Source: a virus. Taken from it: 64,000 nt of DNA. The DNA is taken from the IMG/VR virus record IMGVR_UViG_3300045988_174813; one strand, given 5' to 3'. Of this stretch, positions 28,389 through 37,332 are shown piece after piece. The first letter of the stretch is position 1; the number at the start of each line of letters is the position of its first letter. Under the pieces are notes generated by a model. That model worked only from the letters and a program-made list of their open reading frames with translations. It ran no database searches and was not told the DNA's origin. Position numbers and translations under genes: made by a program.

Positions 28389-28409
28389 TCTAACCTAAGA
28401 TAGGTTAGA
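28389..28409. repeat. cassette palindrome copy 1 (TCTAACCT-N5-AGGTTAGA)
   Basis: tctaacctaagataggttaga. Confidence 0.9.
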
Positions 28410-28436
28410 TTTTGGGGTAAAAGAAAAGAGGGAAAA

Positions 28437-28619
28437 TTAGATTTCCCCCTCAATAGAATAATTTTCGTATTTATAATGTAAATCAATCTGGTATTCTTTT
28501 TCACACTGCGGGCAATAATAGATACAACATTCTGTATGATAATCATCACCATATAAATCATCATACGTATCATCAAGAGCAAGAACCGCACCACAATTCG
28601 GGCATCTAATCTCTTCCAT
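28437..28619 (-). CDS. zinc-ribbon small protein (60 aa)
   Basis: CPNC..CPQC; third gene of a 3-gene Cys-rich mini-operon. Confidence 0.6.
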   Translation of the reverse strand: MEEIRCPNCGAVLALDDTYDDLYGDDYHTECCIYYCPQCEKEYQIDLHYKYENYSIEGEI

Positions 28620-28781
28620 TTATTCTTCATCCTCCAAACAAGAATCATTATTTTCACCAGTAGGAAAATAGAAACTTCCTTTCCAGAGAGGACAATTATT
28701 AATACATTCCCCTTTAAGGCAATCATTTACGTTGCATCTCTCTATAAAGAAAATAATTTCCTCATTACTTAGATTTTTCAT
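28620..28781 (-). CDS. small Cys-rich protein (53 aa)
   Basis: Abuts both neighbours with no gap; MKNLSNEEIIFFIERCNVNDCLKGECINNCPLW. Confidence 0.5.
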   Translation of the reverse strand: MKNLSNEEIIFFIERCNVNDCLKGECINNCPLWKGSFYFPTGENNDSCLEDEE

Positions 28782-28901
28782 TTACTCTTCCTCCTCATAC
28801 TCACACGGTGGAATATCTCCCGCGCACTTTGCTTCAAACTTACAAGTTGGATAACTTTCGTCCTCTTCGCACCAGCAATATGGACAATCCTTGCAACTCA
28901 T
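28782..28901 (-). CDS. small Cys-rich acidic protein (39 aa)
   Basis: AAAGGAGG RBS 7 nt before ATG 28901; promoter TTGACT-17-TATAAT and the palindrome lie upstream. Confidence 0.5.
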   Translation of the reverse strand: MSCKDCPYCWCEEDESYPTCKFEAKCAGDIPPCEYEEEE

Positions 28902-28972
28902 ACACTTACCTCCTTTAGATGATACAATTATATCGCGCCCGCGCCATAAAGTCAAGAAAAACATTTCCATAA

Positions 28973-28993
28973 CCTAACCTATCTTAGGTTAGA
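28973..28993. repeat. cassette palindrome copy 2 (left arm 7/8)
   Basis: cctaacctatcttaggttaga. Confidence 0.85.
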
Positions 28994-29041
28994 AATGCAC
29001 CAAAAACTTTCCCTCGCTAAAGTATTAGCAAGGGAAAATTT

Positions 29042-29899
29042 TCAAATATCGGCGCGTCCTACGATGCGGAACGGGAAAGCAATAATTCCGTAGGAAAATT
29101 TTCCTTTCGTGCGCTTGTGGATAAGGGAAAAAATTTCGGTTTCTATCTCGGCATCATTCAATGCCGTGTGCGCTTCTTCAAAATCAGTTTCCCCAGTGAT
29201 AAACCGGAAAGACGTTTCCGCGCTTGTCTTGTAGTATTTCCCACTTTCGGTAATCCAACCGTTAGCTTTGCACGCTTCGCGGTAATCGTCGCTATCAAGA
29301 ATATGCTCACAAGCCAAACCCCAGAGGTCAAACAGAGGATACGACCGACCACGGAAACGGAACACTTCCGGCTCATATTCTTTCTTGGAGGTATAGCGCG
29401 TCTTGCTTGCAATGTTGTCGCAGATGCGGTTCTGGAGGGCTTCCCAGTTGTGGAAGTCTGCGCTATACAGTTTGGAAATATAAAGCTCGGTAAACGGGAT
29501 TGCTTTCTTGAAGTCAAAGTTGGCGTTATAAGCTCCGACGCCTACCACGTCGGCGAGGTCTGCTTCAAGTTTTGCGGACGCTTCGCGCCACGTTGCAAGC
29601 TCAATCGTTCCCGCTTCCAGAGCTTCAAGGTAAATCGGACGCTTAGACGCATAGTAAGCAGTATTGAAAATCGCAGGAACGGAGAAAATCTCGGTAATGA
29701 GATAGTTACGGCGGCGATAAACGTTACCCTTGGCGTCGCAAATCGTCCAGCCCAAATCATAAATAAGCGGCTTTGCGATAGCTACGGATTTTTTCGCTTC
29801 CGCGGACAGCTCCGACGCATAGGGAAGCGTTGCGGTTTCGCAATCGAGGACGCAATAGTATTTGCGGCGGCGGTCAAGTTTCTTCTCGGCAATAGACAT
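29042..29899 (-). CDS. DEDDh (DnaQ-like) 3'-5' exonuclease
   Basis: Exo I VLDCETA, Exo II AYNANFD, Exo III HTALNDAEIE. AAAAGGAG RBS before ATG 29899. GC-rich relative to neighbours. Confidence 0.7.
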   Translation of the reverse strand: MSIAEKKLDRRRKYYCVLDCETATLPYASELSAEAKKSVAIAKPLIYDLGWTICDAKGNVYRRRNYLITEIFSVPAIFNTAYYASKRPIYLEALEAGTIELATWREASAKLEADLADVVGVGAYNANFDFKKAIPFTELYISKLYSADFHNWEALQNRICDNIASKTRYTSKKEYEPEVFRFRGRSYPLFDLWGLACEHILDSDDYREACKANGWITESGKYYKTSAETSFRFITGETDFEEAHTALNDAEIETEIFSLIHKRTKGKFSYGIIAFPFRIVGRADI

Positions 29900-30000
29900 A
29901 ATATATACTCCTTTTCTGTCGGGGCGTAACTTCTTTTCCCTCCTGACATTATATATATTACCACACCCTATACAGGAAGTCAAGAAAAATGTGTCCGGCT

Positions 30001-30021
30001 TCTAACCTATCTTAGGTTAGA
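30001..30021. repeat. cassette palindrome copy 3
   Basis: tctaacctatcttaggttaga. Confidence 0.9.
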
Positions 30022-30044
30022 AAAATTCCAAAAAAAGCAGGGAA

Positions 30045-30416
30045 TTACTCCCCTGCTTTTTCTTCCTCTGCCTTTTCCGCCTTGGCTTTTTCCTTTTCGG
30101 CTTTCTTCCGTTCCCGCTCGGCTTCTTTGCGCTTCCGTTCGGCTTCCTTGGCTTCGGCTTTCTCCGCCTTGTCTGCGAGCTTGGCGCGATACTCGTTAGC
30201 GAGCGCGTAACCGTCCGTGCCGTCCTCTTCGTCGGCTTTCTTCGGGATAATCACCGACAGCTTCACCCACCTATCCTCCCCAGCTTCGACAGTCGGGAAC
30301 ATAAGCGTTCCGGAAGCGGTCTGCATGACCTCTTCGCCGTCCTCCGTGAGAACTTCCACCAGACGCGCAAGCATGCGCGCACGCAGAGCATCATTCACAT
30401 TTACTTTCTTTTCCAT
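30045..30416 (-). CDS. hypothetical protein with K/E-rich tail (123 aa)
   Basis: AAAGGAGG RBS; own promoter TTGACT-17-TATCAT; GC-rich. Confidence 0.6.
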   Translation of the reverse strand: MEKKVNVNDALRARMLARLVEVLTEDGEEVMQTASGTLMFPTVEAGEDRWVKLSVIIPKKADEEDGTDGYALANEYRAKLADKAEKAEAKEAERKRKEAERERKKAEKEKAKAEKAEEEKAGE

Positions 30417-30492
30417 TTGGGATACCTCCTTTATCTTTGTGAGTATATGATACTATATATTGAGGGAAAAGTCAAGAAAAACTTTCGGTAGT

Positions 30493-30513
30493 TCTAACCT
30501 ATGTTAGGTTAGA
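30493..30513. repeat. cassette palindrome copy 4
   Basis: tctaacctatgttaggttaga. Confidence 0.9.
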
Positions 30514-30517
30514 TATA

Positions 30518-30533
30518 GATGGCTCGCGCCATC
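30518..30533 (-). terminator. cassette-end hairpin GATGGC-TCGC-GCCATC
   Basis: Abuts the stop of 30532-30750. The same hairpin recurs at 31714, 34209 (variant) and 35231. Confidence 0.45.
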
Positions 30534-35855: not shown

Positions 35856-35975
35856 AAAAATTGCAAAAAAAATTCCATACCATTATGGGATACAAAAAAT
35901 TGCAAGAAAAAATTCCATTGCGCGGGCACCATAAAATTACTACAAAGTATGGTGTCCGCGCCGTGTATGTATGTC

Positions 35976-36143
35976 TCAATATCTTACTTCTGTATAAAGA
36001 TGTGCTACGCCAGAAATCAGAGAATACACACCTACTAACTCTTGAATTATAAACCGCGCCATAGAAATATTGCCCATATCAATCGCGCCAACACTACCAA
36101 AAATAAGTGCAATCCCAACAATGATTTTTATCCATTTACTCAT
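35976..36143 (-). CDS. small membrane protein (55 aa, 2 TM)
   Basis: GAAAGGAG RBS before ATG 36143; WIKIIVGIALIFGSVGAI and LVGVYSLISGVA. Confidence 0.55.
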   Translation of the reverse strand: MSKWIKIIVGIALIFGSVGAIDMGNISMARFIIQELVGVYSLISGVAHLYTEVRY

Positions 36144-36229
36144 TAGAATACTCTCCTTTCGTTTTCTACTTATAGTATATATTATGGAAACCAAATTGTC
36201 AATACAGAATTATGTGAACCGCGCGAAAC

Positions 36230-36250
36230 TCTAACCTATATTAGGTTAGA
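36230..36250. repeat. cassette palindrome copy 19
   Basis: tctaacctatattaggttaga. Confidence 0.9.
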
Positions 36251-36302
36251 AAATATAGTGAAAAGAAACTTCACTACGGTAAAGTAGTGAAGTTTCCTCT
36301 AC

Positions 36303-36467
36303 TTAGTACGTATCGTACCCCATCATTTCCGCCGTGTAATCATCATCAATGGAAATAAATTCCGGGTCGTCAAAATAGAAATAAGCGATTTGGTCGGCGC
36401 TGTCGATGCTGTTGGCGACCACATAGAAATATTCTCCGGTCTGATTGTCATAATACAAATAATTCAT
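36303..36467 (-). CDS. acidic small protein (54 aa)
   Basis: AAGGGGAAAC RBS before ATG 36467; promoter TTGACT-16-TATAAT with about 110-nt leader. Confidence 0.5.
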   Translation of the reverse strand: MNYLYYDNQTGEYFYVVANSIDSADQIAYFYFDDPEFISIDDDYTAEMMGYDTY

Positions 36468-36603
36468 AGTAGTTTCCCCTTGTATTTAGTTTGTGGACAA
36501 GGAATAGGGGTCGGATGGCGGTATCACATAACGCTCTCCATCGGGTCTTTTTCCCTGTCCACATTATGAATTATACCACATTATATGGAAAAGTCAAATG
36601 GTT

Positions 36604-36624
36604 TCTAACCTATTTTAGGTTAGA
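36604..36624. repeat. cassette palindrome copy 20
   Basis: tctaacctattttaggttaga. Confidence 0.9.
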
Positions 36625-36679
36625 ATTATGGGATAGGAAAAACTTTTCCACACTAAAGTGGAAAAGTTTCCCCAAAAAA

Positions 36680-36850
36680 TTACTGGTCAATGGTGTATTC
36701 GATTTTCCCCGTCTTGTCATTTTTCACGACAACCACGCCCGCGCCCGGAAAAGTGGCATAATTTTCGGCAAGATTTTTTGCGGTTTTGAGGGTTGCCACG
36801 CCAGAATGAAATACGGTGCGAGATTTGAAATTGATTTCGATAGTGTACAT
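36680..36850 (-). CDS. hypothetical small protein (56 aa)
   Basis: AAGGAGG RBS 8 nt before ATG 36850. Followed by hairpin CTTTTCCAC-TTTAGT-GTGGAAAAG plus a T run. Confidence 0.55.
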   Translation of the reverse strand: MYTIEINFKSRTVFHSGVATLKTAKNLAENYATFPGAGVVVVKNDKTGKIEYTIDQ

Positions 36851-36927
36851 TGTATGTACCTCCTTGATTTATTGTACCTATATGATACTATATATATACT
36901 ATATTGTCAATACCCTATCGGGATATT

Positions 36928-36948
36928 TCTAACCTATGTTAGGTTAGA
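36928..36948. repeat. cassette palindrome copy 21
   Basis: tctaacctatgttaggttaga. Confidence 0.9.
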
Positions 36949-37265
36949 AAAAAATTTGAGCGGGACAAAATTTCCAGCCTGTAGCTTTCATACTTTAGTG
37001 TATGAAAGTACGGGCTCTCGCGCGGGTGCGCGAAAAAATTTCCAGCTCAGCTCCAGCTTCAGCTTTCAGCTCAGCTCCCCTGTGAGTGGTAGGTGATGGG
37101 TGGGTTATGGGTGCATAATATATATACTATGGGCGCGCTTTGCACCTTGACGCCAAATTTCTACTTTATCCTGCTAAATCGTTATACTTTCGCGTGCTAA
37201 ATCGCTACACTTTCACGATGTAAAGTGCGACAGTTTATTACACTAAAGTATTATTCCATACTACA

Positions 37266-37294
37266 ATTATAACACATAATGCATAGATATGCAA
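37266..37294 (-). promoter_or_regulatory. sigmaA-type promoter TTGCAT-17-TATAAT (minus strand) with no ORF downstream
   Basis: rc hexamers atgcaa 37289-94 / attata 37266-71. The next about 300 nt (to about 36960) lack an ORF. Confidence 0.55.
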
Positions 37295-37311
37295 GAAAAA
37301 TTTCCCCCGTT

Positions 37312-37332
37312 TCTAACCTATATTAGGTTAGA
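37312..37332. repeat. cassette palindrome copy 22
   Basis: tctaacctatattaggttaga. Confidence 0.9.

Follow-up and report, generated by a model that had tools for sequence, protein, structure and literature searches.

IMG/VR virus record IMGVR_UViG_3300045988_174813 is a stretch of 64,000 nucleotides (nt), referred to here in its full length as the window. From 28389 to 37332, on the minus strand, it carries an array of early genes in which 22 copies of a 21-bp palindrome delimit 21 single-promoter transcription units (referred to as W1 to W21). The analysis below suggests that all early genes are under the simultaneous control of one phage factor, and that the palindrome also marks the points at which early genes are swapped. 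We consider the palindrome to be probably a multi-copy operator for a symmetric, phage-encoded factor acting at ~20 early promoters.

Palindromes and cassettes of the early array

A first-pass annotation of the window had described the repeat as TCTAACCT-N5-AGGTTAGA, and this pattern indeed has 22 matches, all confined to 28389-37332, with 0 expected from 100 shuffles. The repeat is better described as 9+3+9, TCTAACCTA-N3-TAGGTTAGA, as the outer bases of the supposed five-base centre are invariantly A and T. Arms are perfect in 21 of the 22 copies, as first claimed; the exception, at 28973, has one change, its final base on the sense (minus) strand being G in place of A. The centre had been read as A/T-only apart from one G in six copies, but contains G or C in seven (five G and two C on the plus strand), and the distance between copies, given as 230-1000 bp, measures 285-1028 bp.

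On the sense strand, the order in each unit is a private hairpin, the palindrome, a promoter, a GGAGG-type ribosome-binding site (RBS), and one small open reading frame (ORF), or three in W21. The ORFs encode 39-285 amino acids (aa), the range originally reported. The annotation assigned a promoter, RBS and ORF to every copy, which holds for W2 to W21 but not for W1, where the promoter is followed by no ORF, nor for the terminal copy at 28389, where the promoter has decayed. A hairpin of -10 kcal/mol or better lies within 45 nt before 20 of the 22 palindromes, compared with 18% of control windows, in line with the private hairpins that had been noticed. From -35 to -10, 12-15 units match TTGACA-17-TATAAT at 11-12 of 12 positions, and 19 of the 21 score at least 9/12 (most 10-12), many with an extended -10 TG. 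The -35 boxes of W1 and W14 (TTGCAT and TTGCAA, respectively) were identified by eye. Table 1 lists the coordinates.

Some cassettes are related to each other. The promoter-leaders of W16 and W19 are near-identical, as the annotation had observed, and the W18 and W15 ORFs (30532-30750 and 31728-31946) are paralogs with 73% DNA identity, which shows that cassettes have been duplicated inside the array. Three ORFans of ~72 aa (30847-31065, 33902-34117, and 35245-35466) resemble the W15 and W18 products by eye only. A Pfam search with 10 further cassette ORFs gave no match.

The ORF-less W1 unit (37311 to 36949) would yield a transcript of ~310 nt containing CTTTAGTG-type hairpins. The W1 RNA folds far better than shuffled sequences (z = -4.7) and is 74% conserved in one of the near-complete relatives described below (genome B); Rfam gave no match to it, and an Rfam scan of the window returned tRNAs only. 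Also at the array start, at 37041-37078, are ~8 (A/G)AGCTG repeats. The same run occurs near the first cassette in the related loci L015, L017, L024, L028, and L049, and is thus common to lineages with different palindromes; it may be a Chi-like or protein-binding tract.

Table 1. Palindromes, half-sites, and associated promoters and ORFs of the early region of the window
Feature	Coordinates	Strand	Spacer to -35 (bp)	Promoter	ORFs and remarks
Palindrome 1 (W1)	37312..37332		17	TTGCAT-17-TATAAT, 37294-37266	no ORF; structured RNA 37262-36949
Palindrome 2 (W2)	36928..36948		17	36910-36882	36680-36850, 56 aa
Palindrome 3 (W3)	36604..36624		6	36597-36570	long leader; 36303-36467, 54 aa
Palindrome 4 (W4)	36230..36250		27	36202-36174	35976-36143, 55 aa, hydrophobic
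Palindrome 5 (W5)	35835..35855		16	35818-35790	35575-35760, 61 aa
Palindrome 6 (W6)	35532..35552		6	35525-35497	35245-35466, 73 aa
Palindrome 7 (W7)	35202..35222		6	35195-35167	34919-35122, 67 aa
Palindrome 8 (W8)	34856..34876		6	34849-34821	34503-34754, 83 aa, acidic
Palindrome 9 (W9)	34467..34487		6	34460-34432	34225-34401, 58 aa
Palindrome 10 (W10)	34182..34202		6	34175-34147	33902-34117, 71 aa, like W15/W17/W18 ORFs by eye
Palindrome 11 (W11)	33860..33880		6	33853-33826	33475-33792, 105 aa; core cassette in window, genomes A and B
Palindrome 12 (W12)	33433..33453		6	33426-33398	32970-33368, 132 aa
Palindrome 13 (W13)	32936..32956		6	32929-32901	32595-32870, 91 aa
Palindrome 14 (W14)	32559..32579		16	TTGCAA-17-TAATAT, 32542-32514	~75-nt leader; 32070-32435, 121 aa, weak MarR/FeoC-like winged helix-turn-helix
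Palindrome 15 (W15)	32011..32031		6	32004-31976	31728-31946, 72 aa
Palindrome 16 (W16)	31689..31709		17	31671-31643	31173-31610, 145 aa, NT5C/HAD-like nucleotidase; core cassette
Palindrome 17 (W17)	31129..31149		6	31122-31094	30847-31065, 72 aa
Palindrome 18 (W18)	30815..30835		6	30808-30780	30532-30750, 72 aa
Palindrome 19 (W19)	30493..30513		17	30475-30447	30045-30416 (-), 123 aa, candidate trans-acting partner
Palindrome 20 (W20)	30001..30021		17	29983-29955	29042-29899, 285 aa; homolog in Enterococcus phage H1 annotated exodeoxyribonuclease
Palindrome 21 (W21), sole variant copy	28973..28993		17	28955-28927	sense strand ...TAGGTTAGG; Cys-rich ORFs 28782-28901, 28620-28781, 28437-28619
Palindrome 22, terminal	28389..28409			decayed, TTGTCA-17-TAAACT, 28379-28351	after last terminator; no ORF
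Lone half-site TAGGTTAGA	39258..39266	-		TTGACA...TAATAT, 39272-39244	right after -35, in 17-bp spacer of first-operon promoter (four genes)
Lone half-site, TCTAACCTA on sense strand	37384..37392	+			starts 60 bp upstream of palindrome 1; conserved in genomes A and B
First operon upstream of array	37536..39041	-			192, 85, 90, 79 aa (192-aa product, 38463-39041); terminator 37553-37522

Helical phasing, lineage-specific arms, and cassette turnover

The first-pass annotation placed the -35 box 6-20 bp after each palindrome. The spacer is instead quantised, at 6 bp (12 copies), 16 bp (2), 17 bp (6), or 27 bp (1), that is, 6 bp plus whole helical turns, and the spacer sequences are mutually unrelated. 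Relatives were located with the W20 protein as an anchor (~3000 homologs), and 55 loci around the homologs were read. Among 461 palindrome-promoter pairs, relatives included, the distance from the palindrome centre to the -35 box peaks at 16.5-18.5 bp (287 pairs), 26.5-28.5 bp (107), 37.5-39.5 bp (22), 48.5-49.5 bp (26), and 59.5-60.5 bp (3). After similar units were collapsed to 290 non-redundant ones from ~40 related phages, the periodicity was strongest at 10.3-10.5 bp (Rayleigh R = 0.85), and with the first peak removed R was still 0.77-0.80 at periods of 10.3-11 bp. A fixed helix face relative to the polymerase site is what would be expected of a protein that touches the polymerase; no such phasing would be required of terminators, RNA elements, or recombinase sites.

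The same array architecture, with the hairpin-palindrome-promoter-ORF layout kept, was found in 40 of the 55 loci, each with its own palindrome. At least nine palindrome types are known, those of the relatives being T2 (TTTAGACTA-N3), T3 (ATTTAGACGT-N3), T4 (TTGGACGTA-N1), T5 (TGGGACGT-N3), T6 (TTAGATGTA-N1), T7 (TTGGATGTT-N1), T8 (TAATACGTT-N1), and T9 (12-bp arms). There are 8-33 copies per locus, uniform in sequence inside each genome. Between lineages both arms always change together, while the centre is unconstrained; in the sister phages L037 and L017, one base per arm differs in all ~20 copies. Two loci depart from perfect symmetry: the palindrome of L039 is imperfect, and in L066 each promoter has one arm only, always 24 bp away.

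Lone half-sites were found just upstream of arrays. The window has two (Table 1), and the T3 genomes L015 and L024 have a half-site of their own sequence at the position equivalent to 39258-39266, after the -35 box in the spacer of the first-operon promoter. As half-sites and single-arm sites are unable to form hairpins, they argue for a symmetric protein that recognises duplex DNA and coevolves in specificity with its sites. Early promoters for individual genes also occur with no palindrome, in three separate clades and in the cultured phages EF1 (Enterococcus) and phAss-1, which indicates that the palindrome is dispensable for promoter function.

Other repeats occur near these sites. Around the lone half-site upstream of palindrome 1, at 37340-37480, are ~8 ATGCAT-containing repeats, possibly a further set of operators. 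Between the first-operon promoter and the sigma-factor-like gene described below, 39348-39532 contains a 14-bp tandem repeat (CAAACCTAAAATTC, 5.9 copies), GCCCTT (4.7 copies), and a C9 run, all differing in copy number in genomes A and B. The 14-bp repeat (39450-39532, with TAGGTT) was considered as a set of extra operators and rejected, since neither its copy number nor its sequence is kept in genomes A and B, and since the equivalent repeats of other lineages lack those lineages' own half-site. In EF1 (L068, MF001358), large intergenic gaps at 3400-10200 hold five copies of the Rex-box-like TTGTGAA-N4-TTCACAA and eight of AAAATAACA. The loci L040 and L042, from a clade without promoter-linked palindromes, have eight GGAACAA-N-TTGTTCC within 300 bp downstream of the array (~16950-17270), which look like origin iterons more than operators.

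The annotation had proposed to search for the palindrome in relatives and to compare the cassettes between identical copies. A metagenome scan returned 53 stretches with the window's own palindrome, nearly all from human gut samples, and the repeat is conserved unchanged: 348 of 377 copies in 47 contigs are perfect. Among the 29 variants, 27 have the same outermost A to G change, leaving only two other changes among 6786 arm positions; the 3-bp centre takes 16 different values in these contigs. No compensatory base-pair change was found among the 377 copies.

The contents between the palindromes, by comparison, do vary. Identical palindromes separate 42 cassette families. The window lacks 22 of these, and for 19 of 36 families the next cassette downstream is not always of the same kind. 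Two near-complete relatives, genome A (L012) and genome B (L013), show 80-97% identity in the parts that they share with the window and differ from it by whole cassettes in collinear order. Their homology to the window ends inside or at the edge of a palindrome, and once at an RBS instead. Across six lineages, 196 of 495 homology-block ends fall within 12 bp of a palindrome, compared with 8% expected. Crossovers occur in either arm, the centre triplet following the left flank at one junction and the right flank at another, a pattern more in keeping with ordinary exchange by homology or microhomology than with a recombinase acting at a fixed site.

Setting of the array and candidate binding proteins

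In the tailed phage to which the window belongs, TAG is a sense codon. Its late genes, from 39627 on, are open only with TAG readthrough; the 2352-aa tape measure ORF (53866-60924) has the highest count for one ORF, with 65 in-frame TAGs. The tRNA array at 697-8730 comprises 15 tRNAs, including a suppressor tRNA with anticodon CTA (2598-2673). The array ORFs stop with TAA or TGA only, and TAG is the stop codon in none of 23 early ORFs, so that these genes would be translatable before the suppressor tRNA acts. Distant relatives of the major capsid and W20 proteins are encoded by phAss-1 ("Caudoviricetes code 15 clade") and Enterococcus phage EF1, and the capsid protein alone additionally matches large Clostridioides and Bacillus phages; a megablast search gave no match to cultured phages. 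The promoters and ribosome-binding sites are of Firmicute type.

The early region, on the minus strand, is flanked on one side by AT-rich iterons and a DnaD/HTH-like gene (26000-28000). The iterons (26000-26630 and 27700-27990) are dense AT-rich tandem repeats with periods of 7, 12-13, and 22 bp around the DnaD/HTH_36-like gene (27072-27557, minus strand), and the repeats and this gene in 26000-27990, at the distal end of the array, are likely the replication origin. On the other flank is a divergent control region (39250-39620) preceding the first late-strand gene (39627-40919, plus strand), which matches the phage sigma-factor family phrog_5767 (E = 1.6e-11), has a Cys-rich, zinc-ribbon-like tail and no Pfam match, and is probably the late-gene switch.

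Three protein families were considered as partners of the palindrome. The W19 family (30045-30416, a 123-aa ORFan) is present in all 43 loci with promoter-linked repeats, L039 and L066 included, and in none of the 13 repeat-free loci by a sensitive search; the latter loci form three separate clades of the W20 tree. Its predicted model (predicted local distance difference test, pLDDT, of 90) has a helix, three strands, an invariant DGY, and a ~50-aa K/E/A-rich helix, and gave no significant PDB match and a single, uncharacterised viral match; W19 belongs to no Pfam or PHROG family. Judged from co-occurrence, W19 is the best lead for a trans-acting factor.

The first-pass annotation had suggested winged helix-turn-helix proteins (20223, 22070, 27072, and 32070) and the product of 39627 for binding tests. 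The family of the W14 product (32070) and its middle-gene paralog (22070-22519) is absent from T6, T7, and T8 loci, three palindrome-bearing lineages, and present in palindrome-free clades, and its recognition helices are near-identical across palindrome types, and we therefore rejected it as the specificity determinant. The 192-aa first-operon product (38463-39041) is a member of a hypervariable family whose proteins in other lineages carry a PD-(D/E)XK-like G..FE / GK.D / E.K motif. In all loci that extend to the array start, a gene of this family comes first upstream of the array. The family tree agrees with palindrome type only in part, and the protein was also set aside as the factor. The palindrome-free loci do not reach the array start, so that the absence of the family there is uninformative, and its AlphaFold model (pLDDT 53) was too poor for a fold search.

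Possible functions of the palindrome

The annotation had left open whether the repeat is an operator for one regulator or a boundary of the kind seen in promoter-stem-loop (PeSL) cassettes of T4-type phages. The breakpoints at the palindrome bear out the second idea, while the ~10.4-bp phasing, the co-changing arms, and the lone half-sites favour an operator as the primary function. We infer that a two-fold symmetric factor would read the 21-bp palindrome as duplex DNA, with one copy at each junction of early units, after the terminator hairpin that closes one unit and before the sigma-A promoter that opens the following one; as the factor differs between lineages, it would be phage-encoded. 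With the centre ~16.5 bp upstream of the -35 box, plus whole turns, the bound factor would face RNA polymerase from one side of the helix, and a single factor could act on ~20 promoters at once. Its action would most likely be negative, providing early shut-off or timing after the factor has accumulated. Shut-off is preferred over activation on account of the near-consensus promoters, the palindrome-free relatives with similar promoters, and the half-site in a promoter spacer. The polymerase might be held, as by phi29 p4 at promoter A2c, and read-through between units might also be blocked. The palindrome, with its promoter, is the only sequence common to all units, so that homologous exchange there would delete, add, or swap whole cassettes, and the region would become, as a by-product, a hyperplastic store of ORFan early genes.

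Several observations weigh against this operator reading. A site centred near -52, -63, or -73 is on the face used by class I activators and fits activation at least as well. Descent of promoter classes could partly explain the phasing, in spite of the differing spacer sequences. At the first-operon promoter, only the window has an exact half-site; genome A matches it at 8 of 9 bases, and genome B lacks it. Variant copies often retain a G-U pair on the sense strand, which is compatible with an RNA or DNA hairpin role. As to the binder, comparison of the winged helix-turn-helix, W19, and first-operon families singled out none: W19 is without a recognisable DNA-binding fold and its three subfamilies do not sort by palindrome type, and the first-operon family follows palindrome type in the contrasts of L037, L017, and the T5-palindrome lineage, but not between the window and genome A, which share a palindrome at 30% protein identity.

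Positive control from the same operator is possible, though not likely. A factor on the activator face would recruit or stabilise polymerase via the C-terminal domain of its alpha subunit (alpha-CTD), or counter host silencing. The whole-turn spacing of the site centres is the geometry of class I activators, and the class one turn further has an A/T tract beside the -35 box, a possible seat for alpha-CTD. Promoters at 10-12 of 12 consensus positions, many with an extended -10, should however need no help, and the palindrome-free relatives use similar ones; moreover, a phage protein would be absent at time zero unless injected, and the half-site inside a promoter spacer suggests occlusion.

We consider it unlikely that the palindrome is matched to one fast-evolving phage protein in a dual role, as early-gene master switch and as active machinery of an integron-like platform for gene capture, which would carry ORFan cassettes, each with its promoter, from genome to genome. 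Candidates for such a protein are the W19 ORFan and the first-operon protein with the nuclease motif. If this were true, switching of specificity would create "incompatibility groups" of co-infecting gut phages, in which a resident silences the early genes of an incomer of the same type.

A dedicated recombination site, the target of a phage recombinase or nuclease in integron-like gene capture with only a secondary link to promoters, appears quite unlikely. It would account for palindromes flanking every cassette, including the promoter-less terminal copy, for gains and losses of whole cassettes with junctions in the palindrome, and for the constant first position of the PD-(D/E)XK-like family, the candidate enzyme. 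However, crossovers fall in either arm and some breakpoints at the RBS, a recombinase site needs no phasing with the -35 box, none of the flanking and array ORFs scanned has an integrase or recombinase match, and cassette order is largely collinear, as unequal homologous exchange predicts. We read the recombination at the palindrome as a consequence of repeated identical sequence, as in the T4 PeSLs, and not as the purpose of the element.

Very doubtful, in our view, is a role as RNA or single-stranded DNA hairpin. Such a hairpin might act as a roadblock or reserve terminator, stabilise 3' ends or direct RNase processing there, or serve as a hairpin promoter of the N4 type. The palindrome can fold as a 9-bp stem without mismatch and a 3-nt loop (-9.2 kcal/mol), with equal energy in other lineages, is always just after the terminator hairpin, and in most variant copies retains the sense-strand G-U pair. 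The stem has only 3 G-C among its 9 pairs and is followed by A or G instead of a T run, so that the annotation was right to call it no classic terminator. Moreover, the arms are invariant in sequence, without compensatory pairs, functional-looking half-sites exist and L066 uses one arm, and the fixed phase relative to the -35 box of the next promoter would be left unexplained. A virion RNA polymerase is absent from the window, where the 2352-aa ORF is the tape measure protein.

Finally, it is highly improbable that the palindrome is a borrowed site of a host transcription factor or nucleoid protein, with differing hosts behind the differing palindromes: hosts may indeed vary along with the palindromes, and the EF1 early region carries host-type Rex-box-like sites, but an exact-match scan of 185,579 species genomes gave six single sites, about the number expected by chance, without any regulon-like set, the Clostridium match is a terminator between convergent genes, and the change of one base per arm between L037 and L017 looks like co-evolution with a phage gene. 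With single sites at chance level only, a host regulon or a prophage was likewise discarded. The exact palindrome occurs once in each of five Metabacillus genome records (L070-L073 and L075, four species), where it is probably an unrelated host operator or terminator.

Under the operator reading, the array offers a concrete, testable cis-regulatory code for the early genes of widespread, uncultured code-15 gut phages of Firmicutes, a group in which, to our knowledge, almost nothing is known of regulation. The at least nine palindrome variants, each in ~20 copies at fixed helical phase, make up a natural series that could be used to find the cognate factor, and in which a regulator and dozens of sites can be studied changing specificity together. 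The cultured relatives EF1 and phAss-1 were considered as an experimental system and rejected, since they have the early array without the palindrome. The array also shows how such phages keep and exchange promoter-equipped ORFans, with at least 42 cassette families in one lineage. The cassette genes likely have host-takeover or anti-defence functions, and the palindromes are possible handles for mining them from metagenomes.

A full-text literature search for such an element found no description, and a word check of the phAss-1 paper and of a survey of stop-codon recoding turned up no mention of promoters or palindromes. Within the scope of these searches, the element appears to be undescribed. 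Several known systems nevertheless share some of its features. Integron cassettes are promoter-less, and their attC sites are long, imperfect, and variable, and are recombined as folded single strands by an adjacent IntI. The array resembles an integron in its one-directional single-gene cassettes, its palindromic separators, and its variable content among relatives. Its cassettes, however, carry promoters of their own, its 21-bp sites are perfect, and the scanned ORFs have no recombinase match. An N4-type hairpin promoter is bound by a virion RNA polymerase through contacts that depend on direction and loop; in the array, the loop triplet is free (16 variants), the element is symmetric, and a consensus sigma-A promoter follows each copy.

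For an upstream, face-dependent site that switches off consensus promoters, phi29 p4, from a Firmicute phage, may serve as a working model. From a site upstream of the -35 box, p4 makes contact with the alpha subunit of the polymerase, and it represses the strong early promoter A2c by preventing escape. Unlike the factor proposed here, p4 acts at three promoters, at a different inverted repeat, and together with p6; nothing in the window shows homology to it. For the p4 sites the reference is Monsalve et al. 1996 (PNAS 93:8913), as cited in PMC11806353.

The stoperators of Cluster A mycobacteriophages (L5 gp71 type) are intergenic, occur in tens of copies, and have a lineage consensus that tracks the repressor (PMC6550527, PMC9283540). 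They are 13-bp asymmetric sites, bound by a monomer, oriented with transcription, distributed genome-wide and mostly off promoters, and serve lysogenic immunity (PMC6550527, PMC9283540). The likeness lies in the 8-33 copies of one short, lineage-specific site per genome, and in one protein controlling many transcription units, as is also proposed here. In contrast, the sites of the array are symmetric (9+3+9), lie within 9 kb, and are each phased to a promoter. For specificity evolving together with its sites, the mycobacteriophage repressor-stoperator system would be the nearest documented case.

The PeSL cassettes of T4-type phages are ORFan early genes in hyperplastic regions, each with a strong sigma-70-type promoter and a stem-loop; where close relatives differ by an indel or a replacement, the junctions fall on the repeated regulatory motif (PMC2839356, PMC4122927). 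A further PeSL feature is the excision of mini-circles through exchange of one motif with the next. The PeSL stem-loop is a G/C-rich terminator of variable sequence, located between, over, or beside the promoter boxes (PMC2839356, PMC4122927). A strong early promoter for each small gene and junctions at the motif are both found in the window as well. Here, however, the terminator is a separate, private hairpin, whereas the shared palindrome is weak, A/T-centred, and invariant, stands 6, 16/17, or 27 bp upstream of the -35 box, and is replaced lineage by lineage at fixed helical phase. The phage is also of a different kind from T4-type ones, with a Gram-positive-like host, genetic code 15, and an unrelated long-tailed (tape-measure-bearing) lineage. 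In its regulation, the array may be likened to stoperator or P1-type multi-operator control, and in its genome plasticity to PeSL; the system resembles both PeSL cassettes and stoperators and belongs to neither.

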